Shown here: positions 16,356-63,390 of the stretch, piece by piece | Layout of the letters: every line of letters starts with the position of its first letter | Numbering within the stretch: the first letter of the stretch is position 1 | Made by a program: the position numbers and the translations under genes | Notes under the pieces: generated by a model | Told to the model about the DNA's origin: nothing | Databases searched by the model: none | The model's input: the letters and a program-made list of their open reading frames with translations, nothing else | Assembly: GCA_964400675.1 (NCBI GenBank) | Contig: CAYNVO010000001.1 | Span: 267,919-331,918, forward strand | Direction of reading: 5' to 3' | Source of the DNA: an uncultured Dehalococcoidales bacterium | Lineage (GTDB): Bacteria > Chloroflexota > Dehalococcoidia > GIF9 > UBA5629 | DNA: 64,000 nucleotides

Positions 16356-16425
16356 TTCACCCTTCGACAGGCTCAGGGTGAGCGGAAAAAGAAGCTTTTC
16401 AGGGTGAGCAGAAGTAGAGACCGCT

Positions 16426-16529
16426 CATGGTGAACTCAGGAAGTACCCGCGCATGGTGAACTTGGGAAGTACCCGCTCATGGTGAACTTGGAAAGTACCT
16501 GCTCATGGTGAGCTTGTCGAACCATGTCG
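16426..16529. repeat. Four direct tandem copies of a 26-bp unit (catggtgaacttgggaagtacccgct)
   Basis: Seen directly in the convergent intergenic region; preceded by two copies of cagggtgagc. Confidence 0.8.
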
Positions 16530-26574: not shown

Positions 26575-26750
26575 CAACCCATCGAGATTCCTCGGTCGTT
26601 TCACTCCCTCAGAATGACAGGGAAGAGAGACCGAGATTGCCACGTCCCGACGCAATCGGGACTCGCAATGACGTGAAGAGACGGAGAGATTGCCACGTCG
26701 TCCTTCCCATTCGGGAAGGGCTTCCTGGCAATGACGGCAAAAACTCCGAA
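26575..26750. repeat. Copy of the palindromic intergenic repeat family (gagattcYtcggtc...cctcagaatgacagg; accgagattgccacg x2)
   Basis: Shares more than 30-nt blocks with the copies at 56.9 kb and 61.9 kb. Confidence 0.6.
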
Positions 26751-26813
26751 TTCGATCTTGACTGGGATGACGGGCAGCTATTCCCTGAGATTCTTTATCC
26801 GGATGCGGATTTT

Positions 26814-48858: not shown

Positions 48859-48917
48859 CTGTCATTCTGAGCAGAGCGAAGAATCTCCAGACCCTTCGCT
48901 ATCGCTCAGGGTGACAA
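48859..48917. repeat. Palindromic intergenic repeat copy (gtcattctgagcagagcgaagaatct / ...cgctcagggtgac)
   Basis: Imperfect ~60-bp palindrome between icd and leuD. Confidence 0.65.
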
Positions 48918-48933
48918 TAAATCTCTTAAGATA

Positions 48934-49443
48934 TCAGAGTTCAAAGTTGCCGTGTTTGGTTATATAGGGAACTAGTCCACCTTCGTCGAGTATGTCCAGC
49001 ATGACCTTCGGAATTTTACCAGAGGTGAGTTTGGAACCTTTGGTCAGGTCATTAACTACGCCTGTGGTCAAATTCACCTCTATTTTATCACCGGCGTCAA
49101 TTTTGTCAGTGTCGCAAATCAGGACTGGCAAGCCCTGGTTTATGGCGTTTCTGAAAAAGATGCGGGCAACCGATTTTGCCAGTATAGCGCTCGCCCCGGC
49201 CATTTTAATAACTAAGGCAGCATGTTCCCGGCTGGAACCAAGCCCGAAGTTCTTGCCGGCAACTATGAAGTCGCCACGCTTAACTTTCTCGGCGAAAGTT
49301 GGGTCGGCATCTTCCATAACGTGTTTGGCTAACTCCGGCAGATTGCTTCTCAGGTTTGCGTATTTGCCCGGTATGATATGGTCGGTAGATATGTTGTCAC
49401 CGAACTTGAAAGCTTTACCTTTAAGGATTTTGTCGGGCATCAT
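48934..49443 (-). CDS. leuD: 3-isopropylmalate dehydratase small subunit (aconitase-family swivel domain)
   Basis: 169-aa aconitase C-terminal-domain protein, translationally coupled (4-nt overlap) to the large subunit. Confidence 0.85.
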   Translation of the reverse strand: MMPDKILKGKAFKFGDNISTDHIIPGKYANLRSNLPELAKHVMEDADPTFAEKVKRGDFIVAGKNFGLGSSREHAALVIKMAGASAILAKSVARIFFRNAINQGLPVLICDTDKIDAGDKIEVNLTTGVVNDLTKGSKLTSGKIPKVMLDILDEGGLVPYITKHGNFEL

Positions 49444-50693
49444 GATACCTTTCTCGGGTCGGTGATTTCGCCGGTTAATGCTGAAGCTGCGGCTGTAGCC
49501 GGACTGGCAAGGTATATCGAGGCTTCCGGGTTGCCCATCCGACCTTTGAAGTTGCGGTTAGCTGTCGACAGGCAGACTTCGTTATCGCCCAGAACGCCCT
49601 GGTGAAGACCGAGGCATGCGGCGCATCCGGGTGGGAGTATCATAGCACCAGCCGCAGCCAGAACTTGAATATAGCCAATCCTCATGGCTTTGGTCAGGAC
49701 TTGCTGTGACGCCGGAGCTATGATTAACCTGACGCTTGGGTGGCGTTTCTTCTTTTTAAGAATGGCGGCAGCTATAGCCAGGTCTTCAAGTCGACCGTTG
49801 GTGCAGGTGCCGATGAAAACCTGGTCGATTTTGGTGCCGGCTAGCATGTTTACCGGAGCCACATTGTCCACTGTGTGAGGCATGGCTACCATAGGTTCGA
49901 GCTCAGAGGCGTTGATGATTACAGAGCGTTCGTAATCGGCGTCGGCATCCGGTTGGAGAGCCCGGTACTTATTGCCTCTGCCTTGAGTCGCCAGGTATCT
50001 TCTGGTGGCATTGTCGCTGGGGAAAATGCCTACCTTGGCGCCGGCTTCCACTGCCATATTGGCTATGGTCAAGCGTTGCGAGATGGTCATGCTGGCTACC
50101 GCGTCACCGTTGAATTCCAGTGCTTTGTAGGTGGCGCCGTCAGCTCCGAGTGCGCCGATGAGATGGAGGACAAGGTCTTTGACATTGACCCATTTTTGAA
50201 ATCTGCCGCTGATGCTGATTTTGAAGGTCTCCGGTACTCTGAACCATGTTTTGCCCAGGGCGAAGGCAATCGCGATATCGCTGGAACCCATTCCGGTGGC
50301 AAAGGAACCTAGACCTCCGGCAGTTACTGTATGGGAGTCGGCACCGACGATGATATCCCCGGGATTGGCAAACATCTCAGCCACCAGCTGATGGCATATT
50401 CCGCTGCCGCCTTCGAAAATCAGGCAGCCGGTTTCATCAGCGAATCTGCGCAAAAATTTATGGTCATTTGACAATTCCCGGTTAGGGCTGGGTATAGCAT
50501 GGTCGAGGAAAATAGCGGTTCGCTGTGGATTGGCCAGGCGCCCGTGTTTGACCTCTTTGAATTGGCGTATAGTTAAAGGTCCGGTGGTGTCCTGGACAAA
50601 GGCCAGGTCTACATTAGCAATGACTATATCGCCGGTCCTGGCATCGGTTCCTGATTTCTCACTTAGGATTTTCTCACTTAGGGTTTTCCCCAT
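49440..50693 (-). CDS. leuC: 3-isopropylmalate dehydratase large subunit (archaeal-type)
   Basis: 417-aa aconitase-family catalytic protein with Fe-S Cys ligands (GTCTNGR, PGCAACLG). Confidence 0.85.
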   Translation of the reverse strand: MGKTLSEKILSEKSGTDARTGDIVIANVDLAFVQDTTGPLTIRQFKEVKHGRLANPQRTAIFLDHAIPSPNRELSNDHKFLRRFADETGCLIFEGGSGICHQLVAEMFANPGDIIVGADSHTVTAGGLGSFATGMGSSDIAIAFALGKTWFRVPETFKISISGRFQKWVNVKDLVLHLIGALGADGATYKALEFNGDAVASMTISQRLTIANMAVEAGAKVGIFPSDNATRRYLATQGRGNKYRALQPDADADYERSVIINASELEPMVAMPHTVDNVAPVNMLAGTKIDQVFIGTCTNGRLEDLAIAAAILKKKKRHPSVRLIIAPASQQVLTKAMRIGYIQVLAAAGAMILPPGCAACLGLHQGVLGDNEVCLSTANRNFKGRMGNPEASIYLASPATAAASALTGEITDPRKVS

Positions 50694-50699
50694 TAAAAC

Positions 50700-52670
50700 C
50701 TAACCGATTGTGGCGAGTATGGTGCCTCCGCTTACTTTGTCGCCGGGTTTGCAATCTATGGATTTAATCTTGCCAGCGACTGGAGAAACTATTTCATTCT
50801 CCATCTTCATGGCTTCCAGGACCACTATGCCCGCGTTTGCCTTGACCACATCGCCTTCCTTCACCATATAGCGGATTATGGTGCCCGGTATCGGGGCTAG
50901 CACTGGAGTCTCACCGGCAGCGACCGTTGGCTTGGAAGGTGCCGGAGCTTCCTTCTCTGCCGGTGCCGCTGGCGCTGCTGGTGCTGCTGGTGCAGCCGGT
51001 GGTTGTGGTGGGGCGTAGGCAGGTGGTGGTGCATATGTCGGATGAGGAGCAAATGCAGCCGGGCCACCTATAGGCTCGACCTCGACCTTGTAATATTCAT
51101 CGCGGACGTAGACATTGAATGTCCTGATTGCTGGTCCTCTGGTTGGTGCTTTCTCTTCAACCTTCTTATCCTCAACTTTGCCAGCTTTGGCTTTGGCAAT
51201 TAGCGCTTCTTCTCTTTTTACGTCTTCCAGGGTCTTAGGCCTGGTTTCTGGCGGGGGTGTCTCTAAACCGTATTTCCACTTAAGAAAGCGCATGCCGGTC
51301 TGAGGATAAAGTGCGTAAATAAGTACGTCACCGATGTCTTTAGCGATATCTTTTGTCGCCTCTTTGGCTTTTGCCAGTTCAGGTTCAAGAATATCTGCCG
51401 GTCGGGATGTAATTGGTGTTTCCCCTCGTTCATAGCCTTTGAGTACTGCTTTCTGTATCTCCTTATCAATTGGTGCTGGTGGTTTACCGTACAGCCCGTA
51501 TACATAATCCTTAACTTCTTTGGATACCATTTTATATCTACCGAAGAGCACGTTCTGAACTGCCTGGACGCCGACTATCTGGCTGGTTGGCGTAACCAGT
51601 GGCGGGTAGCCGAGTTCCTTTCGAGTTCTGGGGAGTTCAGCATAGACTTCCTGGAGGCGGTCGATGGCGTTGGCTTCTTTCAGTTGGGCAACCATGTTAC
51701 TGAACATGCCCCCGGGGATTTGATGCCATAGCACACCTGTGTCGATGACAGATATCTTGGTTGTGTCCAAAAAATCTCTGTATTTAGGGGCAATAGACTC
51801 GAAGTATTCACCCAGTTTAAGCAGATGTTCTAATCTGATTCCGGTATCTCTGGGAGTGCCGCTGAGGGCAACCACGATTGGCTCTACCGCCGGGTGAGAG
51901 GTGCGCAAGGCGAAGGGAGCAATGCAGGTATCTATAAAATCGACTCCAGCCTCGATGGCTTTCAGGAAGCTCATATAAGCCATGCCGCTGGTGAAATGGC
52001 TATGCAAATTGACCGGTATCTTCAGAGCCTGTTTCAAAGCTTTGATTAGCTCGTAGGCATCATCCGGTGCAATTAGTCCAGCCATGTCCTTGATGCACAG
52101 GCTGTCAGCCCCCATATCTTGTATGATAAGTGCCTTGTTTATGAAATACTCGATGTTGTATATAGGACCGCCCAGCTTGGGTTCTGTAAGCGAGTAGCAC
52201 AGTGTTCCCTGGATATGCTTCTTCTTATCCTGTATGGCTTTAAAGGCAGTTATGAAGTTGCGTTCGTCATTGACGGCATCGAAGACGCGGAATACGTCGA
52301 TACCGCAGTCGGCGGCGTGGTGTACGAATGCGGTGACTACATCATCGGCATAATTGCGATAGCCGACCAGGTTCTGACCGCGAAGTAGCATTTGCAACCT
52401 GGTGTCGGGCATCAGCTTTTTCAAGATGCGGATTCTTTCCCAGGGGTCTTCATTCAGAAACCGGGTCATGACGTCAAAAGTGGCGCCACCCCAGACTTCC
52501 ATGGACCAGAATCCTGCCTTGTTCATCTCCGGGGCAATGGGCTCCATGTCAGCAGTTCGCATCCTGGTGGCAAAGAGAGATTGATGGCCATCACGCAGCG
52601 TGAGGTCAGTAATTTTTAATGGATTCTTTCCGCTTCCCTTGCTTGGACTCATGCTTATGCCTCCTCTCAA
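50700..52670 (-). CDS. Pyruvate carboxylase subunit B / oxaloacetate decarboxylase alpha-like (5S carboxyltransferase plus biotinyl domain)
   Basis: N-terminal ITDLTLRDGHQSL...RFLNEDPWERIR carboxyltransferase domain, a Pro/Ala-rich linker, and a C-terminal biotinyl domain with EAMKMENEI. Confidence 0.9.
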   Translation of the reverse strand: MRGGISMSPSKGSGKNPLKITDLTLRDGHQSLFATRMRTADMEPIAPEMNKAGFWSMEVWGGATFDVMTRFLNEDPWERIRILKKLMPDTRLQMLLRGQNLVGYRNYADDVVTAFVHHAADCGIDVFRVFDAVNDERNFITAFKAIQDKKKHIQGTLCYSLTEPKLGGPIYNIEYFINKALIIQDMGADSLCIKDMAGLIAPDDAYELIKALKQALKIPVNLHSHFTSGMAYMSFLKAIEAGVDFIDTCIAPFALRTSHPAVEPIVVALSGTPRDTGIRLEHLLKLGEYFESIAPKYRDFLDTTKISVIDTGVLWHQIPGGMFSNMVAQLKEANAIDRLQEVYAELPRTRKELGYPPLVTPTSQIVGVQAVQNVLFGRYKMVSKEVKDYVYGLYGKPPAPIDKEIQKAVLKGYERGETPITSRPADILEPELAKAKEATKDIAKDIGDVLIYALYPQTGMRFLKWKYGLETPPPETRPKTLEDVKREEALIAKAKAGKVEDKKVEEKAPTRGPAIRTFNVYVRDEYYKVEVEPIGGPAAFAPHPTYAPPPAYAPPQPPAAPAAPAAPAAPAEKEAPAPSKPTVAAGETPVLAPIPGTIIRYMVKEGDVVKANAGIVVLEAMKMENEIVSPVAGKIKSIDCKPGDKVSGGTILATIG

Positions 52671-52682
52671 TAAGTGTTAGTT

Positions 52683-52892
52683 TTAGCTTCTCTGATTGTG
52701 TCTTCTCGCCTGCCAGTTAGTTCTGGCTCTCATCAATTCCTGGCGTCCAAAAAGCCGCCATGTGCTGGTTTCAGGGTAAGGCGTAACTGTAATAATGGAA
52801 GGCACTGCTTGTGCCTGTCCTTGCCCTTGCCCTTCCTGTTCCATGTAGGCGTTAATCGCCCCCAATATTGCGGCTACCACGGTTTTGTGCAT
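52683..52892 (-). CDS. Small ORF between the 5S and 12S subunit genes (possible decarboxylase gamma/delta-like subunit, or repeat-derived)
   Basis: 69 aa, N-terminal hydrophobic segment; the GQGQGQ stretch is encoded by ccctgc/ccttgc repeats like the nearby repeat family. Confidence 0.25.
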   Translation of the reverse strand: MHKTVVAAILGAINAYMEQEGQGQGQAQAVPSIITVTPYPETSTWRLFGRQELMRARTNWQARRHNQRS

Positions 52893-52904
52893 TTTAATTA
52901 CTCT

Positions 52905-54455
52905 CTACAACGGGATATTACCGTGTTTTTTTGGTGGATTGGTATCGGTCTTGTTACGCAGCATGTCCAGTGCTTTAATCACTTTCGGTCGTGTGCTTCT
53001 GGGGTCGATGACATCGTCAATATAGCCCTTGCTGGCAGCTATATAGGGATTGGCGAATTTGTCCCTGTACTCAGCAATCAGTTTCTGTCTTGTCTCCTCC
53101 GGCTTTTCCGACTTATCTATAGTGTCTTTGAAGACGATGTTCACGGCACCATCCGGTCCCATCACGGCGATTTCAGCCGTTGGCCAGGCATAGTTTATAT
53201 CGCCGCGCAGGTTTTTGCTGCTCATGACCACAAAAGCTCCGCCGTAAGCTTTGCGGGTGATGATGCTTATCTTGGGCACGGTGGCTTCAGCGTAGGCATA
53301 TAGGAACTTGGCGCCGTGCCTGATGATGCCTCTGTATTCTTGTTCGCTGCCCGGCATATACCCGGGCACATCTACGAGTGTAATCAGGGGAATATTAAAG
53401 CAATCGCAAAATCTGACGAACCTGGCGCCTTTATCTGCGGCATCAACATCTATTGCGCCGGCATATACTGCCGGCTGCTGGGCTACTATCCCCACGCTGT
53501 AGCCGCCCATCCTGGCGAAGCCGACGATGAGGTTATTGGCAAAATTATCGTGCACCTCCAGAAAATCGCCGTTGTCTATAATTTTGAGTATGACATTTTT
53601 CATATCGTAGGTTTTGTTCGGGTCATCGGGGATAACGTGGAGCAATTCCTCGTCCATTCGGTTCGCGTCGTCTGCGGTATCGATGAAAGGCGGGTCAGCC
53701 AGGTTGTTTTGCGGCAGAAAGCTTAACAGCCGGCGTATCGCTCCGAGACATTTTTTGTCATCGTCTGCCACAAAGTGACAGTTACCGCTTTTGATGGCGT
53801 GTGTCATAGCGCCGCCCAATTCCTCGAAACTAATTTCTTCTCCGGTAACCGACTTGATTACTGCCGGGCCGGTAATATACATCTGGCCTGTGTTCTTGAC
53901 CATGAAGATGAAGTCGGTTATGGCTGGGGAATAGACAGCGCCTCCGGCACAGGGGCCCATAACCGCCGAAATCTGCGGTACAACACCTGAATAGATGGTG
54001 TTTCGCATGAATATGTCACCGTAGCCTGCCAGGCTTTCTACCCCCTCCTGTATTCGAGCACCACCTGAGTCGAGCAAGCCTATTATAGGGGCGCCGTTTT
54101 TGGCTGCCAGGTCCATGGCTTTGCAGATTTTTTCCGAAGCCACTTTTGACAGCGAACCACCGAAAACGGTGAAGTCCTGGGAAAAGACGAAGGCAGTTCG
54201 GCCGTCGATTTTGCCGTATCCGGTGACTACAGCGTCGCCGAGAACTCTCTGCTTTTCGGCTCCGAGGTCAGTGCAGCGGTGTAGAGCAAACGGGTCGAGT
54301 TCTTCAAAGGTGCCCGGGTCGAAGAGGAGCTGAATCCGCTCCCTGGCGGTAAGCTTGCCCTGCTTGTGCTGCGTTTCTATGCGCCTGGCTCCGCCGCCAG
54401 CCATAGCTTTTTCTCTTAATTCTCTTAGTTCGGTGATTTTTTCCTCAATTCCCAT
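52905..54455 (-). CDS. Acyl-CoA carboxylase carboxyltransferase subunit (12S; propionyl-CoA carboxylase beta / methylmalonyl-CoA decarboxylase alpha family)
   Basis: MGIEEKITELRELREKA...KQHKQGKLTARERIQLL N-terminus is typical of PccB/MmdA. The track ORF's first ~56 codons (GTG start at 54623) are read-through of the palindromic repeat. Start coordinate is +/-1 nt. Confidence 0.85.
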   Translation of the reverse strand: MGIEEKITELRELREKAMAGGGARRIETQHKQGKLTARERIQLLFDPGTFEELDPFALHRCTDLGAEKQRVLGDAVVTGYGKIDGRTAFVFSQDFTVFGGSLSKVASEKICKAMDLAAKNGAPIIGLLDSGGARIQEGVESLAGYGDIFMRNTIYSGVVPQISAVMGPCAGGAVYSPAITDFIFMVKNTGQMYITGPAVIKSVTGEEISFEELGGAMTHAIKSGNCHFVADDDKKCLGAIRRLLSFLPQNNLADPPFIDTADDANRMDEELLHVIPDDPNKTYDMKNVILKIIDNGDFLEVHDNFANNLIVGFARMGGYSVGIVAQQPAVYAGAIDVDAADKGARFVRFCDCFNIPLITLVDVPGYMPGSEQEYRGIIRHGAKFLYAYAEATVPKISIITRKAYGGAFVVMSSKNLRGDINYAWPTAEIAVMGPDGAVNIVFKDTIDKSEKPEETRQKLIAEYRDKFANPYIAASKGYIDDVIDPRSTRPKVIKALDMLRNKTDTNPPKKHGNIPL

Positions 54456-54552
54456 ACGCCTTACCTTCCCATGTACGATTGCCGCAGATAGAGCATTGTA
54501 ACATATTTCGTCGAGCCTTGAATAGCGTATAGGCACATATCTGACCCATTGT

Positions 54553-54616
54553 CTGTCATTCTGACCCTGACCCTGACCCTGAGCCGAAAGCGAAGGGGAA
54601 GGGGAAGGGGAAGAAT
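54553..54616. repeat. Palindromic repeat copy (gtcattctg-[accctg]x3-agccgaaagcgaa-[gggga]x3-agaatc), left arm of an inverted pair
   Basis: Reverse complement of 56575..56632. Confidence 0.7.
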
Positions 54617-54668
54617 CGCACACATTGACTACATAACAGATTGCCTTGCATGGTAGAATAGAGACCTG

Positions 54669-55553
54669 ATGGCTGACAGGGTGAGCAAGGCTTCATTGCC
54701 GGAGTGGCGAAAAGCAAAGGGCGGTTCCACACCGGGTGTCACCCGTTGCGGGAAAGCCACCTTCCGCTGGGGAGAGCGGACCTACGTGATGGGGATTATC
54801 AACGTCTCCCCCGATTCCTTCTCCGGTGACGGACTGGATAGTGTCGATGCTGCGGTAGCTCAGGCGCAGCGCTTTATCGCCGAAGGTGTTGACATGCTCG
54901 ATGTCGGCGGCGAATCTACCCGCCCGAATTCGGCTCCGATAACAATCGATGAGGAGTTGCGGCGGGTGATACCGGTGCTGGAGCGTCTGGCTGGCAAAGT
55001 TGAAGTGTCTTTGAGCGTCGACACCTATAAGTTAGAGGTGGCTCGCCGGGCTTTAGATGCCGGTGCAGACATGCTCAATGATATCTGGGGGTTGAAGAAA
55101 GAGCCGAGACTGGCTGCACTGGCGGCACAGAGAGGCGTGCCTGTAGTCCTGATGAGCAATCAGCGTGAGGACCCTCAGCGACATATCGTGCCGGCGGTTA
55201 TCGCCGACCTCAAGAGGGCTATAGACATGGCTCTGGATGCAGGCGTGCCCTGGGATAATATTATCGTTGACCCGGGCGTTGGTTTCGGCAAGACACTGGA
55301 GCAGAACCTCGAGCTGGTACGTCGCCTTGACGAGCTTAAAGCCCTGGGTAGACCTGTACTGCTGGGCACCTCGCGCAAATCGATGATTGGAATGGTGCTG
55401 GAATTGCCTGCGGAGCAGCGTCTGGAGGGCACGGCAGCCAGCGTCGCCATCGGTATCGCCAGAGGTGCCGATATAATCAGGGTGCATGATGTCAGGGAGA
55501 TGGTGCGCGTTTGCCGCATGAGCGATGCCATTATACGGGGCGGGAGGAGCTAG
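54669..55553 (+). CDS. folP: Dihydropteroate synthase
   Basis: MGIINVSPDSFSGDG pterin-binding motif; ...GESTRP...; ...DPGVGFGKT. Confidence 0.9.
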   Translation: MADRVSKASLPEWRKAKGGSTPGVTRCGKATFRWGERTYVMGIINVSPDSFSGDGLDSVDAAVAQAQRFIAEGVDMLDVGGESTRPNSAPITIDEELRRVIPVLERLAGKVEVSLSVDTYKLEVARRALDAGADMLNDIWGLKKEPRLAALAAQRGVPVVLMSNQREDPQRHIVPAVIADLKRAIDMALDAGVPWDNIIVDPGVGFGKTLEQNLELVRRLDELKALGRPVLLGTSRKSMIGMVLELPAEQRLEGTAASVAIGIARGADIIRVHDVREMVRVCRMSDAIIRGGRS

Positions 55554-55555
55554 CA

Positions 55556-56083
55556 GTGGCAACCGTATATCTCGGTCTCGGCTCGAATCTGGGAGACAGG
55601 AAGCATAACCTGGCTCAAGCACTGGAGTTGCTGTCAAAACATGTGGTAATTGAACTGATATCCTCTGTCTATGAAACAGAGCCTTCAGGCTACAAGGAGC
55701 AGCCGCTTTTTCTTAATGCCGTGTGCCGTGTCTCTATGGGACTTAGCCCTGAGAATCTTCTGCGTCTGGCTAAGAAAATCGAGGCTGAACTGGGCAGGAC
55801 GCCCGGCTTTCCCAACGCACCCAGGCCCATCGATATAGACATACTTTTCTACGATAATCAGGTTCTAAACGATAAGGAGTTGACCATACCTCATCCCCGG
55901 CTGGTGGAGCGGGCTTTCGTGCTGGTGCCGCTGGCTGAAATCGCCCCGGACATGGTCCATCCCGTAAGTAAAAAGACCGTCAAAGAGCTGCTTGATGATT
56001 TGGGGGCTGTGACCGGCGTTAGCAAGTGGGCTGAAGCTGAGGAGCTTATGAACAGGAGGCAAGATGTATCAGGTATCTGTTGA
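55556..56083 (+). CDS. folK: 2-amino-4-hydroxy-6-hydroxymethyldihydropteridine pyrophosphokinase
   Basis: VYLGLGSNLGDR N-terminus and IDIDIL motif. GTG start at 55556 is preceded by the RBS gggaggag; the track's longer ORF overlaps folP. Confidence 0.85.
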   Translation: MATVYLGLGSNLGDRKHNLAQALELLSKHVVIELISSVYETEPSGYKEQPLFLNAVCRVSMGLSPENLLRLAKKIEAELGRTPGFPNAPRPIDIDILFYDNQVLNDKELTIPHPRLVERAFVLVPLAEIAPDMVHPVSKKTVKELLDDLGAVTGVSKWAEAEELMNRRQDVSGIC

Positions 56084-56432
56084 AGGGCATTTCGATGCCG
56101 CTCATTATCTCAGGGACTACGGCGGCAAGTGTGAAAATTTGCATGGCCATCGCTTCAAGGTGATAGTAACCTTGAAGGCTGGCAGGCTTAATGAAACCGG
56201 CCTGTCTTATGATTTCGTGGACTTGAAGCGTCATCTGAATGAGGTTCTTTCCCAATTCGACCACAACTGCATAAATGATGTGCCGCCCTTCGATAAAATC
56301 AACGCCTCTTCGGAAAATATCGCTGCCACTATTTATGACCAGCTTAAAGGTCGTTTCTCCGGCGGAGTGTCGCTGGCAAGCGTGCAGGTCTGGGAATCTC
56401 CGCAGAGCTGCGTTACCTACAGCCCTGAATAA
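56064..56432 (+). CDS. queD: 6-pyruvoyl-tetrahydropterin synthase family protein (QueD/PTPS paralog)
   Basis: CENLHGH zinc/catalytic motif and an upstream HxxH; 122 aa; overlaps folK by 20 nt. Confidence 0.8.
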   Translation: MYQVSVEGHFDAAHYLRDYGGKCENLHGHRFKVIVTLKAGRLNETGLSYDFVDLKRHLNEVLSQFDHNCINDVPPFDKINASSENIAATIYDQLKGRFSGGVSLASVQVWESPQSCVTYSPE

Positions 56433-56460
56433 TTAGTCTTTCAGGTCCGGGCTTTTACTT

Positions 56461-56640
56461 GTCACTCTGATGCCTTTCCTGTCACCCTGAAAATTTTCCT
56501 GTCACCCTGAACGCTAGTGAAGGGTCTAAAGCTTCTTCACTTGCGGAGTTTATCCTAGGCGGATGAGAGATTCTTCCCCTTCCCCTTCGCTTTCGGCTCA
56601 GGGTCAGGGTCAGAATGACAGAAGCGAAGGGCCCAGAATG
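56461..56640. repeat. Compound copy of the intergenic repeat family ([cctgtcaccctga] x3 ... right arm of inverted pair ... gtcagaatgacag)
   Basis: 56575..56632 is the reverse complement of 54553..54616; track ORFs 56482..56667 and 56718..56957 lie inside repeats. Confidence 0.7.
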
Positions 56641-56653
56641 GAAGGTAAGGTTG

Positions 56654-56845
56654 CTAAGCCTTCTCAAGGTCTGGTGGCAGCAGGTTGGGTATGTTTTCTG
56701 TGATGGGGTAGCTGTGGTTGCACTTTTTGCAGAAGAGTGAGCCGGTCACCACCTCGCCCTCTTTCTCTTCAGTTACCTTGAGCTTAAGCGAGCTTTTGCA
56801 CACCGGACAGGCTAATATGTCCATTAACTCTTTCTTCATCGGCAA
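56654..56845 (-). CDS. Trm112-family zinc-ribbon protein
   Basis: DILACPVCK...LFCKKCNHSYPI, 63 aa. Confidence 0.7.
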   Translation of the reverse strand: MPMKKELMDILACPVCKSSLKLKVTEEKEGEVVTGSLFCKKCNHSYPITENIPNLLPPDLEKA

Positions 56846-56886
56846 TTATCCTACTGCAATTCAGCCAGGCTGTCAATTTTGGTGTC

Positions 56887-56998
56887 GTGTCATTCTGAGC
56901 GCAGCGAAGAATCTTACGTTGTTCCCATCACCGAGATTGCCGCAGAGTTTACCCTGAGTGAGATTCTTCGGTCACTCCGTTTCCTTAGAATGACACGA
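56887..56998. repeat. Palindromic intergenic repeat copy (gtcattctgagcgcagcgaagaatct...gagattcttcggtcactccg...agaatgacac)
   Basis: Inverted arms seen directly; shares accgagattgccgc with other copies. Confidence 0.7.
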
Positions 56999-57062
56999 AA
57001 CTAAAGGCTAGCAATGACATTCTTCATCCCTCTTGCCTCCAGGTCGCCATTGAGTTAGACTG

Positions 57063-58673
57063 ATGGCAGTAAGGGGAAACTCTGTGGTAAAGCTGACATT
57101 TTACGGCGGCATCAATGAAATCGGCGGCAACAAGATTCTCCTGGAGGACGGAGAGCGTCGGCTGTTCCTCGATTTCGGCTTCCCCTACAAGAGTCACAAG
57201 AAATTCTACGAGGAATACCTGAAGCCCCGTGGCGGCGCCGGCTTGCTCGACCCCCTGGCGATGGGCTTGCTGCCACCGCTGGAAGGGCTTTATCGTGATG
57301 ACCTGGTAACGCCGGGGCTCTGGGAGCAGTTCCGTCATAGCTCTCTTTACCGCAAACTTGAACGGGTTGATGGCGTGCTGCTGTCCCACGCCCATCTTGA
57401 CCACTCGGGACATATCGCCTTTCTCAGGGATGACATCCCGGTCTATTCCACCGCCACTACCGCCTTTATTGCCAAGTCTGTTCAGGATTCAGGTAAGGCT
57501 GACTTCGACCAGCAGGTGTGTTATTTCGACCATAAGCAACCGGGGCGTCCCTCGAACTGGAAACAGGAGGCGCTGCTTACCGGTGACAAAAAGCAACAGC
57601 GGCAGTTCTGCCTTGCCGACGCCGAGCTAAAAGCCTTGAGCGAGGACGCCGTCAAGTTCTGGCTCAAATCTCCGGCGCAGAAGCCGCTTATCTCCTGTCC
57701 CCTGAACAGTCACAGCGGCTGTAGCTTAAATCTGCGCTGTTTTCCGGTTGACCACTCTATACCCGGCGCCTGTGCCTGGGGCATCGAGACCGGCTCCGGC
57801 TGGATTATCTACAGTGGCGACTTACGGCTGCACGGCAAGCGCGCCGAGCTTACCAGAAAATTCATCGAGGAGGCGGGCAAGCTGCGTCCCAGGGCGCTTA
57901 TCCTTGAGGGCACCAATGTGACCCGCGACAAGAATGTGCCTGAGGGCGAAGTGTATGAAAATGGTTTTAAGGTAATAAAAGATGCTGCCGGACTGGTTAT
58001 CGCCGACTTCCCGCCCCGGGATGTGAACCGCCTGCTCACTTTCTTGCAGATTGCCCGGGACACGGGCAGGAAGCTGGCTATACTGCCCAGGGACGCCTAC
58101 CTGTTAAAGGCCATGCGCCTGCTGGAGCCGGAAATTCCTGATATCGCCCGGGAGGACAGCATCGTCATATATCAGGACACCATTGCCAGCAAGAGCCCCA
58201 ACCTGTGGGTGCAGAACCTGTGCAAAGAGCACGGTAGCAAGATGGTTCTGGCTGAAGATGTGCGTTCGGCTGAGGACAAGTTTATACTCTGTTTCAGCTT
58301 CTGGGACATAAACGAGTTGCCCAGCCTTCGCCCCACGCCGGGCAGCCTGTATGTGTTCAGCTCCAGTGAGCCACACGATGAAGAGCAGGAGATCGACTTC
58401 CGCCGCCTGCATAAGTGGCTGGAGCACTTTGGGCTACGAGGCTTCGGTCTTCCAGTAGAAAAGAACGGCGAGTGGGAGATACCCGAAGCTGAGCGAGGAT
58501 TACATGCCTCCGGCCATGCCTGCGGTCCCGATTTGCTCGAGGTGGCTCGCGGAATAAAGCCCGAAGTCCTCATCCCTGTCCACAGCGAGCACCCCGATTT
58601 CTACACAGAGCACCTGGGTGGCAGCGGAATCGAGGTTATTCTCCCCACTGTAGGTGGCACAATCGAGGTGTGA
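57063..58673 (+). CDS. MBL-fold / beta-CASP ribonuclease (RNase J-like)
   Basis: N-terminal KLTFYGGINEIGGNKILLEDG...FLDFG and HAHLDHSGH (HxHxDH); 536 aa matches RNase J length. Confidence 0.6.
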   Translation: MAVRGNSVVKLTFYGGINEIGGNKILLEDGERRLFLDFGFPYKSHKKFYEEYLKPRGGAGLLDPLAMGLLPPLEGLYRDDLVTPGLWEQFRHSSLYRKLERVDGVLLSHAHLDHSGHIAFLRDDIPVYSTATTAFIAKSVQDSGKADFDQQVCYFDHKQPGRPSNWKQEALLTGDKKQQRQFCLADAELKALSEDAVKFWLKSPAQKPLISCPLNSHSGCSLNLRCFPVDHSIPGACAWGIETGSGWIIYSGDLRLHGKRAELTRKFIEEAGKLRPRALILEGTNVTRDKNVPEGEVYENGFKVIKDAAGLVIADFPPRDVNRLLTFLQIARDTGRKLAILPRDAYLLKAMRLLEPEIPDIAREDSIVIYQDTIASKSPNLWVQNLCKEHGSKMVLAEDVRSAEDKFILCFSFWDINELPSLRPTPGSLYVFSSSEPHDEEQEIDFRRLHKWLEHFGLRGFGLPVEKNGEWEIPEAERGLHASGHACGPDLLEVARGIKPEVLIPVHSEHPDFYTEHLGGSGIEVILPTVGGTIEV

Positions 58674-58773
58674 TATCCGGAACACAGCTTTCAGCCGTTC
58701 TTAGTGTTTCTTGTTCTAAATGTTACTGCGATAATGTTTTACGTTTTCTCTGACCAGGTAAACAAAATCTATA

Positions 58774-59361
58774 CTATCCTACACCCCTGGCGTGCATTCT
58801 TGCCATGTATTTATTGAACATTCTTTGCTTACGCTCTTCTTCAACTTTTCCTTTGCAGATTTGTCTGAGCCGATTGCACTCTTTCAGTGTACTCCAATCC
58901 ATAGCAATTTTTTGCTCTTCCTTATATACTTCCAAAGCCCCCGATTGGAAACGCTGTAAATAACTCTTTTGTTTTGGTAGTACTATTATGACTTTCTTTC
59001 TATAATTTGGAAAAGGTGCAATTATTTCAAGCTCTCTATACACTCCTCCTTGACGAGTTGGGCTCGCAAGTACAAGTGCTATTACTAGGTCTGCAGTATC
59101 CACGTGGGTTAATTCTGCATAACCGAGCTCAATAGAAGTGCTAGACTGAAGTCTGAACAATTCTTCACATGTACGTACTTCGTCTTTTTCCTCCTTTTCC
59201 CGAGATAGTTCTTTTAATGCATCTATTAGATTAGTTCTCTTTGTAAGCCATTCTTCATTACCAGTCTCTCCAGGCCCTAACACTAATACTCTAAGGTCTA
59301 CCCAAAGGTCATTAAGTAGCTCGGAAGATTCAGTAGACCAAGAAGAACCACCGCTTGTCAT
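58774..59361 (-). CDS. Hypothetical protein C of a three-gene operon; SLOG/LOG/NDT-like Rossmannoid signature
   Basis: RVLVLGPGETG early strand and ...LVIALVLASPTRQGGVYRELEIIAP, reminiscent of the PGGxGTxxE (LOG) / DSGTAFELG (nucleoside 2-deoxyribosyltransferase) motifs; AT-rich. Confidence 0.45.
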   Translation of the reverse strand: MTSGGSSWSTESSELLNDLWVDLRVLVLGPGETGNEEWLTKRTNLIDALKELSREKEEKDEVRTCEELFRLQSSTSIELGYAELTHVDTADLVIALVLASPTRQGGVYRELEIIAPFPNYRKKVIIVLPKQKSYLQRFQSGALEVYKEEQKIAMDWSTLKECNRLRQICKGKVEEERKQRMFNKYMARMHARGVG

Positions 59362-59366
59362 TATTT

Positions 59367-59870
59367 CTATATTATCGCTTCCTTTGATATTGCTTTAAGT
59401 TTGTTCAGATCAGCCAAGGCAGCCTGACCTTCTGGGGTAATCCTAAGTGTTGAGTCTAATACCTGCAAATAGTCGGCCCTTACCAAAAGAGCAATCTTAA
59501 GCCAATACCTATACTCGCCGATATGATCAGCTAGTTGGTCCACTCCAAAATATTCTTTCTCAGTGAATAGTTCCAAAAACCTTAGGCAATCACTGTCCAT
59601 TAAAGCATTTGCTTTTGCGTGTTGGTTTCTTATGGAATCTTCGTCCTCTTCATGACCTCGGAGAAGGCCACTTTTATCTTCTTTCTCAGTGATCTCTTTT
59701 GGTGATGATGCGGTACCGAAGTCAACATATCCTATTGTGATGTCTTCTTCACTCGGACTTACCCAAGATACTCCAGTTATACCTTCCTTTTCCTCCCAAC
59801 TAATTTGTTCGGGTTGTCGTTCAGGTAAATCAGTCTGATAACTATCTTTTAATCGAACTATTCTAGCCAT
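59367..59870 (-). CDS. Hypothetical protein B of a three-gene operon (acidic N-region, C-terminal winged-helix-like)
   Basis: 6-nt gap to gene C, 8-nt overlap with gene A; no recognisable catalytic motif. Confidence 0.4.
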   Translation of the reverse strand: MARIVRLKDSYQTDLPERQPEQISWEEKEGITGVSWVSPSEEDITIGYVDFGTASSPKEITEKEDKSGLLRGHEEDEDSIRNQHAKANALMDSDCLRFLELFTEKEYFGVDQLADHIGEYRYWLKIALLVRADYLQVLDSTLRITPEGQAALADLNKLKAISKEAII

Positions 59871-60588
59871 CGATTTCCTCCAATAAGCGTGCTCCTATTT
59901 TCCCCAGCATTTCGTACTCTATGTCCGCTGCTGACTTCAAAAATCCAGCTGTTTCATTCCTTGATATAGTATTTGGCTCTTCCCTTCTCCAATATACGTC
60001 TACATCAAAAAGTAATCCGTCGGACGGATAATCTACCGGATCCTTGGGTTCCCTTAATAGTCTTATATTGTTCATACGTAAGACCCCAATGTACTTTTTG
60101 ATCGGGAAACGAACTGCATATTCTATCCCTACATCCTCTTTCTTCTCTACTTCTGCGATTATATCTTGAAGTAATACCCCAGAAATTATCTTTGCTAGTG
60201 ACGTTGATGATTTAACAATGTTTTCTGTTTCCACAAAGAATTGAGACCGCAGTCCTAGGGTCCTGAAATTCTTCACCTCAATATCTTTTGCGATTCCAGT
60301 AATCCATTCAGGTGCAGTATCGACAACGTGGGTCAATGAATCTATAAGAGCATAACGCAACCATATCGTGTCAGCTGAGAATCTGATTTCGTAGGGATCT
60401 GCATCTTCCCTCCTTTGACTTAATAGACAACCCCCTGGGTCTATGTTGTGTTGTTTGTAGAATTGCCCAATTCTATTTAGTGTCAATCCTGCTGAATCCA
60501 AGTAACGGTAACCTTTTACTGTCTTTGCTTGTGTAAAAGCCTGGTGCAAAGTCCATTTTTTCTTTCCATTTCTCGCTGTCTTTTCCAT
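59863..60588 (-). CDS. Hypothetical protein A of a three-gene operon
   Basis: 241 aa, first gene of an AT-rich operon; no recognisable motif. Confidence 0.4.
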   Translation of the reverse strand: MEKTARNGKKKWTLHQAFTQAKTVKGYRYLDSAGLTLNRIGQFYKQHNIDPGGCLLSQRREDADPYEIRFSADTIWLRYALIDSLTHVVDTAPEWITGIAKDIEVKNFRTLGLRSQFFVETENIVKSSTSLAKIISGVLLQDIIAEVEKKEDVGIEYAVRFPIKKYIGVLRMNNIRLLREPKDPVDYPSDGLLFDVDVYWRREEPNTISRNETAGFLKSAADIEYEMLGKIGARLLEEIDG

Positions 60589-60608
60589 GTCTCAAAAACC
60601 TCGCCTTA

Positions 60609-60640
60609 GTATTTTACGTTATGAAATTACTCTTGGACAA
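60609..60640 (-). promoter_or_regulatory. Candidate sigma70-like promoter for the three-gene operon (TTGTCC - 18 nt - TAAAAT)
   Basis: Minus strand reads ttgtccaagagtaatttcataacgtaaaatac about 20 nt upstream of ATG 60588, with an aaggcgagg RBS-like leader. Confidence 0.25.
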
Positions 60641-60811
60641 CGTAATATTGACATAAATATACACAAACAAACTAATTATAACACGATTGGTATTATTCTA
60701 ACATGACCTATATATAGGAAGGAAGTTTCTGGGCATTCTTATCTATTGAGCAAGCAGCTCAAGGCACGCCAAGCAGAAATGGTTAGTGAGTCTTGAGACT
60801 TGGGTCGTACC

Positions 60812-61669
60812 CTATGCCAGCTTTATATCCGAGCTGGTTTTGGCTTCCTTGATGAATTGGAGCAGTATGCTGCTGCGCAGGTCGTTTCGGCTCTCAAGCG
60901 GGGCGACGAACTTGCCTTTAATCCAGATGTGCTGCGGTTCGACGAAAACGAGCACGCGGGGACCGCTCATGGCTTCATCGAGGAACCGGGGGTAGCCGTC
61001 CTGGAAGACCTGTTCCGCCTGCTTTACATAAACTTCGTCCTGACTCTTGAGTATGCTCTCCAGAAGCTGGCTCGCCTTGTCCACGTTGCTGTCGGTGGTC
61101 AGGGGGATGCGTACCTCGTCGAACATGTAGTCAGATGAGATAGCTTCCAGACCTGTCGAGTAGTCCTTGGAGTAGTTCAGTACCGGCTGGTCGAGTATTA
61201 TGAGGTTGGGTACATATAGCAGCCTGCCGGTGAGCTCGCCGCCCAGCTTCTCGTCTTCCCCGACCTCTTCGAGCGTGGTGTGAAGCAGTCCTATGTGCCT
61301 GACGTCGCCTTTTGTGTTGCCGATGCGGATTCTATCTCCCAAATCATAGATTTTGGAGAAGGTGATGACAAAGAAAGCGAAAAAGCAGGCGATGTATTTC
61401 TGTAGAGCCAATGCCAGCGCTATGGCGATAATAGGCACATACATGGCTATTTTAGGTACATATATGGCTGCCAGTATGGTAATGGCGACGAATATGGCAA
61501 CGGCGGTGCAGGTGAGTATGGTTGTGATGAGGTTCGTGTTGCGCCGCTGCGCCTCGGCTTTAAGCGCGTTAACCTTGGCGGTGCGCCGGCTGATATCGGC
61601 AGGGGGACGCCCGATTTCTGTGGTTGGGTCACTGCGACTTTTTTGCGTCGAGCGTTTGCTTTTAGTCAT
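60812..61669 (-). CDS. Mechanosensitive ion channel (MscS family)
   Basis: Three TM helices followed by the MscS beta-domain block ...DLGDRIRIGNTKGDVRHIGLLHTTLEE.... Confidence 0.7.
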   Translation of the reverse strand: MTKSKRSTQKSRSDPTTEIGRPPADISRRTAKVNALKAEAQRRNTNLITTILTCTAVAIFVAITILAAIYVPKIAMYVPIIAIALALALQKYIACFFAFFVITFSKIYDLGDRIRIGNTKGDVRHIGLLHTTLEEVGEDEKLGGELTGRLLYVPNLIILDQPVLNYSKDYSTGLEAISSDYMFDEVRIPLTTDSNVDKASQLLESILKSQDEVYVKQAEQVFQDGYPRFLDEAMSGPRVLVFVEPQHIWIKGKFVAPLESRNDLRSSILLQFIKEAKTSSDIKLA

Positions 61670-61826
61670 TTTTGCTCAGTGCTCTGGCTAGATAATAGAG
61701 GTGGGAGGGGGTGACCCTCCCATTTTTAGTGTGTTTAATTATAGGTGTTTTGGGGTCATCTGGTCAAGGCAGTGTGCCATTTTGTCATCGCGAGGGGCGT
61801 AGCCTCGTGGCGATCTCATGTTATGT

Positions 61827-62270
61827 CCTGTCATTCTGAGCGTAGCGAAGAATCTCATGTCTTCTCTGCTACCGAGGTTGCCACGTGGAGTTTACCCTGA
61901 GCGAGATTCTTCGGTCACTCCGTTCCCTCAGAATGACAGGAAGGGCGCTCAGAATGACAGGGGCGAAAGGTTCAGTTCCTTCGACGGGCTCAGGATGAGC
62001 GGGGATGATAGGTAGATTCTTCGACAAGCTCAGAATGACAGGAAGGGTGCTCAGAATGACAGGAAGGGCGCTCAGAATGACAGGGGCGAAGGGTTCAGTT
62101 CCTTCGACGGGCTCAGGATGAGCGGGGATGATAGGTAGATTCTTCGACAAGCTCAGAATGACAGGAAGGGTGCTCAGAATGACATGAAGGGTGTTCAGAA
62201 TGACAGGGGCGAAGGACTCAGTTCCTTCGACAGGCTCAGGATGAGCGGGGGTAACAGGCAGGATGAGCGG
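61827..62270. repeat. Compound array of the palindromic repeat family: one full palindromic element then ~2.5 tandem copies of a ~121-bp unit
   Basis: The ~121-bp unit contains gctcagaatgacagg[a/g]agggc sub-repeats and gctcaggatgagcgg. Track ORFs 61818..62015 and 61869..62150 are repeat artefacts. Confidence 0.8.
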
Positions 62271-62280
62271 TAAGAAGGGT

Positions 62281-63390
62281 TCATAGAGCCAGTGCCAGGT
62301 TCAGGTATAGCTGGGCTGCCTGCACCACCTGCTGGAAGGGGACCGACTCTTCGGGCGTGTGGGCGGCTTCCAGACGGCCGGGACCAAGCACGATTGGGTC
62401 TACACCGGCAGCCCAGAGCACGCTGCCATCGGAGTGGCTCCTGAAGTCCTGCGGTTCCCAGGGTAAAGACATCTTGTTGTACGTTTCCTTCAGCTTACCT
62501 ATCAGTGGTCTCTCTTCGGAAATGCGGTATCCGGCATGTGTGTCCTCGAATTTTAGTCGGGCGTTTAAGCCGTTGATGCTGCCGCCGGCTGTCTTTACCA
62601 GCTGCTCCAGCTCTGTTTTAAGCACTTCGAGCCTGGAGTTAGGCGGCAGATGCAGGTCAAGCCATGCCTCGCAGGCGTCCGGCACGACAAAGCCGCCGGG
62701 GAAGCCCGAAAGCTCCCTGATGTTGTAGACCAGGCCGTGTGGTGCCGGGGTGGCGTACTCCGTGATTTGCAGCAGCAGCTTGAGCATGGTTTCAATGGCA
62801 TTTTGTCCCAGCTCCGGCATTGAGGAGTGGGCTTTTTTCCCCTCGGTGCGCAGCAGAATCTCCATGTAACCGTAGTGGCCAAGACAGGGTATCAGGCTGG
62901 TGGGCTCGCCAATCACCGCCCAGGGGAAGCTGTATTCCTGCATCAATGCCTTGGCACCGCTGCTGTCTTCCTCCTCGCCGACCACCAGAGCCAGTCCTGC
63001 CGGCGGGAAAGCCTTTTTGCTGCCGGTCAGGGCAATGAAGGCTTCCATCATGGCGGCGCAGCCGGCTTTCATATCTGTGGTTCCCAGACCGAATATAGTG
63101 CCGTCTTCCTCATGGAAACCGAAATCTTCGAGGTCGTGGGCGGTAATGGTATCGAGATGTCCCACGAAGCAAAGCTCTACCTCGTATTTGCCTTCGGGAA
63201 AGGCGATCAGGTTAAAGCGGCTCTCGTCGACCTCCTGCTTGCTTACCGCTATGCCGTGCTTCTCGAGGTATTCCCCGGCAAAGTCGACGATTTCCTCCTC
63301 TTTGCCCGACGGACTGTATATGTCCACCAGCTCTCGGAGAAGCCTTTTCAGCCTTTGTGGGTTTATATTCATTGGCTTATTATGCTTCAT
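62281..63390 (-). CDS. M20 family metallopeptidase (ArgE/DapE-like deacylase)
   Basis: IYSPSGKEEEI, GHLDTI, GTTDMKAG, GEEEDSSGA (M20 metal-binding motifs). Start ATG 63390 overlaps the upstream GNAT stop (ATGAAGCATAA); the track's longer ORF would overlap GNAT by 137 nt. Confidence 0.8.
   Translation of the reverse strand: MKHNKPMNINPQRLKRLLRELVDIYSPSGKEEEIVDFAGEYLEKHGIAVSKQEVDESRFNLIAFPEGKYEVELCFVGHLDTITAHDLEDFGFHEEDGTIFGLGTTDMKAGCAAMMEAFIALTGSKKAFPPAGLALVVGEEEDSSGAKALMQEYSFPWAVIGEPTSLIPCLGHYGYMEILLRTEGKKAHSSMPELGQNAIETMLKLLLQITEYATPAPHGLVYNIRELSGFPGGFVVPDACEAWLDLHLPPNSRLEVLKTELEQLVKTAGGSINGLNARLKFEDTHAGYRISEERPLIGKLKETYNKMSLPWEPQDFRSHSDGSVLWAAGVDPIVLGPGRLEAAHTPEESVPFQQVVQAAQLYLNLALAL

Follow-up and report, generated by a model that had tools for sequence, protein, structure and literature searches.

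Oriented hairpin repeats with tandem G·A mismatches in a Dehalococcoidales genome: a probable sub-type of the CGTC-tagged, Ssn-related repeats

A 64,000-nucleotide stretch of DNA from an uncultured Dehalococcoidales bacterium of the phylum Chloroflexota (GenBank assembly GCA_964400675.1, contig CAYNVO010000001.1, positions 267,919 to 331,918 of the forward strand), hereafter called the window, contains a family of small palindromic repeats. The 90%-identity clusters of the window's proteins have members named as Dehalococcoidia. The genes that neighbor these repeats are housekeeping genes, including leuB, leuCD-like genes, a carboxylase gene, folP, folK and the genes for PTPS, Trm112, RNase J, MscS and an M20 peptidase. 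The basic entity of the family is an oriented hairpin unit of ~25 nucleotides (nt), (C/T)GTC-A-YYCT-GA-[short hairpin]-GA-AGRR-T-C(TC), which has the consensus nCTGTCATTCTGAGCGnAGCGAAGAATCTnn and is present in ~20 copies in the window. As a hairpin, the unit consists of the tag (C/T)GTC, a 5-bp stem (A-YYCT/AGRR-T), an internal loop with GA on either arm (tandem G·A/A·G), a variable apex and the tail C(TC). The apex is a longer hairpin or a 2-bp stem with a 3-nt GNA loop, typically GC-GNA-GC, and forms of the G·A-type unit are written as GTCATTCTGAGCGAAGCGAAGAATCTC and GTCATTCTGAGCG.

The units occur as singletons, tail-to-tail inverted pairs, nested copies, hexamer-expanded hairpins and arrays of 5' halves. 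In the inverted pairs, at 48861-48915, 56889-56994 and 61830-61937, the tags face outward. The expanded hairpins follow the scheme GTCA-TTCTGA(CCCTGA)n…(GAAGGG)nGAAGAA-TC, with n=3 at 54555-54617 and n=2 at 56569-56619, and arrays of 5' halves that terminate in a full unit are found at 56461-56526, 16421-16526 and 61927-62295. Four stem variants are present in the window, TTCT/AGAA, CCCT/AGGG, TTGC/GCAA and TCGC/GCGA, the last two with a GA/GTG loop, and a sister sub-type with a GCTCA tag resides at 16361-16526 and within the 62-kb array. The initial annotation had described imperfect palindromes of 60-110 bp at a series of sites. Such palindromes exist as inverted pairs of units, but the basic entity is the 25-nt oriented unit; every listed interval carries the motif, but an additional unit at 61784-61815 had gone unlisted. 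A motif at 16369..16412 that had been called merely related is a repeat, but one of the GCTCA-tagged sister sub-type, whose cluster extends from 16361 onward to 16526. The repeats of the window are as follows.

16361..16412, minus strand: GCTCA-tagged full unit CCGCTCACCCTGAGCCTGTCGAAGG and a 5'-half remnant, directly after the stop codon of an enoyl-CoA hydratase gene.
16421..16526, plus strand: array of 26-nt 5' halves, x3.7 (CCGCTCATGGTGAACTTGGGAAGTAC), closing with a full GCTCA-tagged unit at 16501-16526 (GCTCATGGTGAGCTTGTCGAACCATG).
26583-26621, minus strand: full unit, TTCT type, with a long loop and a single stem mismatch.
26635-26672 and 26688-26735, minus strand: full units, TTGC type, with a GA/GTG internal loop and long apical hairpins.
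48861-48885 (plus strand; TTCT stem, AGA loop) and 48890-48915 (minus strand; CCCT stem, GATA loop): inverted pair between the leuD-like gene and leuB.
54555-54617, plus strand: expanded unit upstream of folP, GTCA-TTCTGA(CCCTGA)3-GCCGAAAGC-(GAAGGG)3GAAGAA-TC.
56461..56640, mixed strands: cluster filling the convergent PTPS/Trm112 gap, with two 20-nt 5' halves (56461-56500, plus), a full unit (56501-56526, plus), an expanded unit (56569-56619, minus) and then a remnant up to 56640.
56889..57018, region in the divergent Trm112/RNase J gap: inverted pair of 56889-56913 (plus) and the long-loop unit 56962-56994 (minus), the latter enclosed by an outer TTGC-type unit at 56935-57018 (minus).
61784-61815, plus strand: TCGC-type unit.
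61830-61854 (plus strand) and 61905-61937 (minus strand, long loop): inverted pair, in the region 61784..61941.
61927..62295, minus strand: array that repeats every 123 nt (x2.6) and combines 21-nt 5' halves with GCTCA-tagged units and full TGTCA-tagged units (62015-62039 and 62138-62162, both minus).

The pair at 48861..48915 forms a single 61-nt hairpin of -16.3 kcal/mol (z score -5.3), and the z scores of the inverted pairs range from -3.7 to -5.3, in line with the long hairpins foreseen by the initial annotation. In the expanded unit at 54555-54617, every hexamer contributes four Watson-Crick pairs and a tandem G·A. The expanded unit at 56569-56619 has 41 nt identical to this copy, from which it lies 2 kb away. 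A sigma-70-like TTGCCT-N17-TAGAAT (54620-54668) is found between the expanded unit and folP and is kept in relatives without the unit, and the expanded unit is thus positioned directly upstream of the likely folP promoter.

Other small modules accompany the units. A conserved spacer module, GCGGAGTTTAYCCTGAG, lies alongside long-loop (GGGAACGGAGTGACC) units at 56930-56955, 61875-61900 and 56541-56560, and the combination recurs in another Chloroflexota metagenome-assembled genome (MAG; L002) and in related IMG/VR phage contigs (L129/L138/L184/L205), which suggests that Chloroflexota are the hosts of these phages and that the composite element is one that the phages carry as well. The apex of units is often another small palindrome, (G)TCCCGA-N5-9-TCGGGA(C), which is seen in several phyla (window 26640-26670, L041, L042, L221) and may be a separate nested module.

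Are the repeats real and more frequent than expected? A strict full-unit detector found 11 copies in the window against 0.025 expected from shuffles, an excess of >400-fold, and GTCAYYCTGA occurs 18 times. Seven independently assembled contigs (JGI, ENA, Logan) match window positions 51.5-64 kb with 0-1 mismatches, and the repeats are therefore not a product of mis-assembly. The sole structural difference is one 123-nt period (61969-62091) that is missing in two ENA assemblies (L318, L321), either through true copy-number variation or through short-read collapse. This difference, which short-read collapse could produce, is the one observation in favor of explaining the repeats as collapsed or chimeric assembly, or as a low-complexity coincidence. 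That explanation is next to impossible and is refuted by the agreement of the assemblies, which are otherwise identical, the excess over shuffles, the covariation of the stem pairs and the recurrence of the core across phyla, the last two of which are described below. Contigs of the same strain break inside the repeats: L322 ends at window positions 56584 and 61855, L323 starts at 56945, and L121 ends 72 nt upstream of leuB. Contig ends of this type are as expected for multi-copy DNA and provide indirect evidence that the units are multi-copy genome-wide.

The hairpin of the unit is supported by covariation. For this analysis, all matches to GTCA-N4-GA-N7-GA-N4-TC in the collected sequence were used without a pairing requirement, and removal of those identical to the retrieval pattern left 55 distinct 25-nt units, in which both GA dinucleotides are fixed by the search pattern. 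Standard pairs occupy 92% of the cells in these units versus 81.5% in shuffles. Compensatory changes were observed at six of the seven pairs, such as TTCT/AGAA to CCCT/AGGG, or GC/GC to AC/GT or GT/AC. Double changes number 49 versus 13 expected, none of 500 shuffles attained the score of the real units, and slid controls collapse. Single-sided (G·U-type) changes are rare (5 versus the 49 double changes). The flanks are also conserved: the G before TCA is kept in 302 of 322 units (94%), and the C after the stem in 286 of 322 (89%).

The context of the units was evaluated with ~490 units in 331 clusters from 2.2 Mb of fetched loci with crude gene calls. The paired units have a strong polarity, with 91 '+-' pairs versus 11 '-+' pairs. 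Clusters are located between unidirectional genes in 134 cases, convergent genes in 43 and divergent genes in 28, and 55 are apparently intragenic. The preponderance of unidirectional and convergent over divergent gaps, the long and stable hairpins of the pairs and the presence of one pair within the leuCD-leuB operon would be compatible with an RNA-level role, in which transcribed hairpins in 3' untranslated regions or operon spacers stabilize or terminate mRNAs, a function that has been proposed for REPs, and an RNA-binding factor accounts for the conservation. We regard such a role as unlikely. Singletons exhibit no significant bias toward the transcribed strand (49 same, 34 opposite), G·U intermediates are almost absent, and units are also found in promoter regions and within coding sequences. 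No T-run follows the units, and Rfam yielded no match at the repeats, either at gathering thresholds over the whole window or at E<=10 over 48.7-62.4 kb. Moreover, the Neisseria nuclease SsnA, which is introduced below, does not bind RNA (PMC11893778), and the presence of units varies among close relatives, which argues against a required regulatory role. The rarity of G·U changes and the absence of a clear singleton strand bias fit a DNA-level rather than an RNA-level constraint.

This variability is apparent at orthologous sites. The PTPS and Trm112 genes abut in L218, L225 and L217 (~80% protein identity) and are separated by ~120 nt of units in L214 and by ~200 nt in the window. The copy upstream of folP is absent from the orthologous site of L225, has one hexamer less on its 5' arm in L214, where the 5' end of L214 is truncated, and is replaced in L218 by a different 350-nt repeat block. 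The inverted pair between Trm112 and RNase J is conserved in L214/L215, and near-identical phage contigs differ by one ~30-nt half-unit. Among expanded hairpins, the number of hexamers is equal on both arms in nine of 11, and 18 arrays in which 5' halves lead up to a closing full unit were found in several phyla and in phages. Two further rearrangements were noted. In a Chloroflexaceae MAG (L039, ~2700-2790), the second member of a pair has minus-strand flanks (GAGA...TGACA) and a G·A core on the plus strand (CCCTGACCCTGAGCGAAGCGAAGGGGAAGGG), so that the core appears flipped relative to its flanks. In Acidobacteriota and Saccharimonadales MAGs (L032, L104, L044, L011), pairs lie inside a larger palindrome, ACAGGCTGCGGAAAAA...TTTTTCCGCAGCCTGT, which represents a second repeat family around the units.

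To which family do the units belong? The initial annotation had seen them as REP/MITE-like (repetitive extragenic palindromic or miniature inverted-repeat transposable element) sequences, which is right in kind, and recognized no named family, a view that the tag, the first stem pairs and the tail contradict, for these are features of the CGTC/TGTC-tagged REP superfamily (PMC3733652), alongside features of NTS and the Ssn-related motifs (SRMs) (PMC11893778). We conclude that the units are probably a sub-type of the NTS/SRM kind, which corresponds to this superfamily, with a tandem G·A/A·G in the stem and an Ssn nuclease as partner. Literature searches with sequence strings returned primer coincidences only. 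A hammerhead-like reading (GUC...CUGA...GAA) was rejected by inspection, with no stem I and the core N-G-A missing.

CGTC-tagged REPs carry the unpaired tag CGTC, often TGTC or CCTC, before stems of 8-9 bp that start with A-T and T-A, and they have a loop of 4-5 nt and a 3-nt tail close to CCA; they mostly form inverted dimers, and Neisseria dRS3 and Rickettsia RPE-4/RPE-6 are among the members of the superfamily (Di Nocera, De Gregorio & Rocco 2013, PMC3733652). Likewise, the units of the present study place TGTC or CGTC (GCTC in the sister sub-type) before a stem that spans nine positions and starts with A-T and T/C-A/G, end in a 3-nt tail, predominantly form inverted dimers of one polarity and occasionally occur in frame inside genes. 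In one such case, a Fibrobacter MAG (L031, ~7150-7260), a unit lies in frame in an apparent lipoprotein signal-peptide region (MKNSFPSVILSVAKNLAMLSIAAVMFVACGG) and resembles the RPE insertions in Rickettsia proteins. The peptides SFLRKQES and VIPAKAGI of R. conorii elements back-translate to GTCATTCCTGCGAAAGCAGGAATC and GTCATTCCCGCGAAAGCGGGAATC, with the same flanks as the window unit, and GTCATTC...GAATC(C/T) is common to the unit, NTS (CGTCATTCCCGCGMAVGCGGGAATCYRG) and Rickettsia RPE. In contrast to CGTC-tagged REPs, the units have G·A mismatches at stem positions 6-7, a loop of mostly 3 nt (GNA) rather than 4-5 nt and a tail of CTC/CCN rather than CCA, and they extend over >15 phyla rather than the five reported. 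The earlier survey kept only palindromes that had at most one mismatch in the stem (PMC3733652), and the G·A sub-type thus fell outside it.

NTS is the oriented form of dRS3, and SRMs, hairpin-forming semi-palindromes of ~20-50 nt, are its relatives in other bacteria (Chenal et al. 2025, PMC11893778). NTS flanks ssnA, which encodes a 94-aa single-domain GIY-YIG protein (cd10448), in an NTS-ssnA-NTS layout whose likeness to an insertion sequence (IS) was remarked on by the authors. SsnA binds the hairpin solely as single-stranded DNA (ssDNA), on one strand, and cuts a few nt upstream; the C 3' of the palindrome is critical for binding, the three nt 5' of the palindrome are critical for cleavage, and Neisseria Ssn restricts incoming motif-bearing ssDNA (PMC11893778). 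The units share with SRM/NTS an oriented hairpin, a conserved GTC 5' and C 3' of the stem, the flanks GTCATTC...GAATCY, hundreds of intergenic copies and, in other genomes, a repeat-ssn-repeat architecture that encloses the gene of a single-domain GIY-YIG protein of ~95 aa. The tag G and the post-stem C of the units correspond to the positions critical for cleavage and binding, respectively. The units differ from SRM/NTS in that the stem is an imperfect palindrome with an invariant tandem G·A/A·G loop (GA being fixed in the search pattern) and a 2-bp/GNA apex, and they undergo expansion by whole [4 bp + G·A·A·G] hexamers and form 5'-half arrays. In addition, they are dominant in Chloroflexota, Acidobacteriota, Nitrospirota, Bacteroidota, the candidate phyla radiation (CPR), Bacillota and environmental phages, as opposed to mostly Pseudomonadati. 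Reference genomes cover the phyla that dominate this host range only sparsely. Because a known hairpin-repeat family brackets a GIY-YIG nuclease gene elsewhere, the finding is largely explained. It is not a new category; new here is a widespread G·A-mismatched sub-type that escapes the published SRM pattern.

A collection with one genome per species contains the exact 24-base core of the unit, GTCATTCTGAGCGNAGCGAAGAATC, in at least 120 stretches, which come from >15 bacterial phyla, compared with an estimated ~0.004 expected by chance. Its hosts include Chloroflexota, Acidobacteriota, Nitrospirota, Nitrospinota, Bacteroidota, Verrucomicrobiota, Planctomycetota, Omnitrophota and Ignavibacteria, as well as Saccharimonadia, Gracilibacteria, Bacillota, Cyanobacteria, several proteobacterial classes and Helicobacter. 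The core is present in 92 viral-contig stretches and on plasmids of Planktothrix, Calothrix, Granulicella, Hymenobacter and Phocaeicola, where it is unannotated, and is virtually missing from the records of cultured phages. Of 80 contigs retrieved by folK homology, only the closest relatives of the window contain units. The distribution is patchy and lineage-enriched, not universal.

Which protein acts on the units? Open reading frames (ORFs) bracketed by units were sought in the 2.2 Mb of motif-bearing loci, and further loci were fetched through protein homology. The motif-bearing loci contain only two GIY-YIG ORFs (L013, L202), both arranged as '+ gene -', and five more independent loci (L298, L299, L300, L302, L308) carry the gene bracketed by a G·A-type unit, giving seven loci in total. 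The product of the bracketed gene is an Ssn-type nuclease of ~95 aa with GIY-YIG as its single domain, and Pfam PF01541 was recognized in both query proteins. In L300, L302 and L202/L294, 27-29 nt of the outer inverted repeats match exactly, and the whole module measures ~450 bp. The excess of '+-' pairs fits this unit-ssn-unit layout. In L302, the spacer of a downstream gene-less pair starts like the leader upstream of the ssn-like gene, which fits gene-less pairs being deletion derivatives. In two phage loci (L295, L296), an Ssn-like gene is instead bracketed by canonical NTS-type units, and the protein of L296 shares 53% identity with P0057, whose gene has G·A-type flanks; only four viral-contig loci contain Ssn relatives.

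At E<=1e-10, at least 7,990 proteins belong to the Ssn-like family, and many of them are encoded on very short contigs. In 81 of the 120 best homologues (P0001-P0120), the ORF end is encoded by the repeat: 47 of the 120 proteins end in ...RDSSLRSE, where the ORF runs into a (-) unit, and 32 end in ...VSF, with the stop codon within GTCATTCTGA. Public gene calls of Ssn-like proteins include some with N-terminal 'VILSEAKNLSVTVLA' extensions, and many are on contigs shorter than 2 kb. No NCBIfam model names the Ssn-like protein, and the Protein Data Bank holds just two entries, both distant (UPF0213, structural genomics). Clustering of neighboring genes at 143 and then 250 motif sites revealed no recurrent protein except the structural genes of one phage group. 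The probable partner of the units is an ssDNA-specific GIY-YIG nuclease rather than a REP-associated tyrosine transposase (RAYT) or TnpB, the partners proposed by the initial annotation.

Mobilization in trans by a RAYT or another IS200/IS605-type HUH Y1 transposase, which would recognize the hairpin and a 5' guide tetranucleotide as for classical REPs and REPINs, is an alternative. Like REP/REPIN-RAYT systems (Nunvar 2010; Bertels & Rainey 2011, PMC3116915; Quentin 2018, PMC6006769), the units are tagged ssDNA hairpins in inverted doublets, clusters and tandem arrays, with a single-copy nuclease gene between its own repeats ('REPtron'-like). Some HUH-Y1 genes, RAYT genes among them, lie next to hairpins of the inner design YYCT-GA-NN-loop-NN-GA-AGRR that carry other tags: GTGG-CACG-CTCT-GA-GG-TCCT-CC-GA-AGGG-CGTG flanks a Planctomyces limnophilus subclass 2.6 RAYT, and CCGC-GA-CC-GTAA-GG-GA-GCGG flanks class 3 TnpA_Y1 (PMC6006769). 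It seems that unrelated ssDNA nucleases either arrived independently at this tandem-G·A hairpin design or exchanged it. Nevertheless, a transposase of this kind is a quite improbable partner. The tag of the units is GTCA or GCTC(A), not GT[AG]G, the associated protein is GIY-YIG, not HUH-Y1, and one core sequence recurs unchanged across phyla, in contrast to REPs, which tend to be species-specific. The survey of CGTC-tagged REPs found no tyrosine transposase flanked by such units (PMC3733652), neither RAYT nor TnpB is encoded in the window, and no recurrent neighboring gene other than the GIY-YIG gene was found. No Y1-like ORF was detected beside the ~490 units in 2.2 Mb of loci by single-sequence phmmer, which is a weak test.

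In the mechanism that we propose, the tagged strand folds into the hairpin when single-stranded, as during replication, transformation or conjugation or in phage DNA; the covariation supports this fold. By analogy with the Neisseria and Wolbachia homologues (PMC11893778), the cognate single-domain Ssn-family GIY-YIG nuclease would then bind the hairpin and the following C and nick the ssDNA a few nt 5' of the GTC tag. The full element, whose architecture is seen in the seven loci, consists of a unit(+), a ~60-80-nt leader, the ssn ORF (~95 aa) and a unit(-), an IS-like arrangement of ~450 bp. The unit(+)-spacer-unit(-) pairs would be gene-less, MITE-like derivatives, whose spacer begins like the ssn leader in at least one lineage, and copies may change rapidly through insertion beside or inside units, gene conversion between copies, hexamer slippage and tandem duplication of 5' halves. 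The window itself holds only non-autonomous repeats. A bolder extension of this scheme, which we advance tentatively and consider rather doubtful, is that the G·A units and their Ssn clade constitute a mobile system that is active across phyla. Nicking of ssDNA hairpins by the 95-aa GIY-YIG enzyme would move or copy the ~450-bp unit-ssn-unit module, with the tandem sheared G·A step as the specificity determinant; expanded hairpins and 5'-half arrays would be nick-and-repair footprints, and unit-carrying phages would spread the system.

Several observations weigh against an Ssn-type partner and against mobility. Neither the 64-kb window nor 480 kb of related contigs contains an ssn-like gene, and the partner enzyme of this organism is consequently one that we infer; any nuclease gene in this genome would have to lie beyond the 64 kb. 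The 120 proteins mentioned above are largely from one clade. The degenerate SRM sequence HGTCWYN(0-2)YYVSBRHN(0-5)WNVSBRGN(0-2)RNCYNB has 0 hits in the window: it matches canonical NTS and not the TTCT, CCCT, TTGC or TCGC units. It is an operational search pattern, not a biological definition. In Neisseria, a change in the palindrome sequence abolished activity though the hairpin was kept (PMC11893778), indicating that specificity is not simply transferable to a G·A-type substrate.

The remaining objections concern energetics and transposition. Nearest-neighbor DNA energies rate single units no better than shuffled sequences (z +0.3 to +0.6), so that the support for the unit hairpin is comparative and not thermodynamic. 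The GC-GNA-GC apex (a d(GCGAAGC)-type triloop) and 5'-GA/3'-AG tandem sheared pairs are classic, unusually stable DNA motifs, and they may explain why standard nearest-neighbor energies undervalue the unit; d(GCGAAGC)-type mini-hairpins and tandem G·A pairs are structural motifs, whereas the units are genetic elements. No target-site duplication or transposition intermediate was seen. Inverted termini of 27-30 bp are present, no duplication is evident at six element borders, and a comparison of flanks across all loci and alignments showed clear presence and absence of units at junctions that are too diverged or repeat-rich to define a duplication. GIY-YIG nucleases are not known to have strand-transfer activity. 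For these reasons, the term 'mobile element' stays inferential; alternatively, pairs that were already in place might have served as homing sites for the ssn gene.

The units also have a practical consequence for annotation. They sit inside operons and 3' regions and corrupt gene calling, and the spurious ORFs and false 5' extensions anticipated by the initial annotation are exemplified by ORFs 52905-54623, 26454-27542 and 61869-62150. In ORF 26454-27542, the minus-strand units at 26583..26735 generate a false 5' extension of a methyltransferase, whose domain begins only at ~residue 128. A separate repeat of the window, unrelated to the hairpin units, dominates the output of repeat finders: a 1223-aa ORF (7748-11419, minus strand) with 13 FG-GAP repeats (147-150-nt DNA period, 9218-11239) and TIG and CARDB-like domains.

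The unit litters many genomes of uncultured bacteria, including those of Chloroflexota, Acidobacteriota, Nitrospirota, Bacteroidota, CPR and rumen Bacillota, and of their phages, where it breaks assemblies and yields false ORFs or termini such as 'VILSEAKNL' and '...RDSSLRSE'. Because the published SRM pattern misses a large and distinct sub-type, the reach of the Ssn/SRM system has been underestimated. The compact unit-ssn-unit modules, gene-less pairs and fast turnover of the units provide material on the question of whether Ssn elements are mobile. If the mobile-system reading were true, no autonomous DNA element smaller than the ~450-bp unit-ssn-unit module would be known. A G·A-mismatch-dependent Ssn, if it exists, would offer a new specificity class for the ssDNA-cutting tools that have been proposed from this enzyme family.

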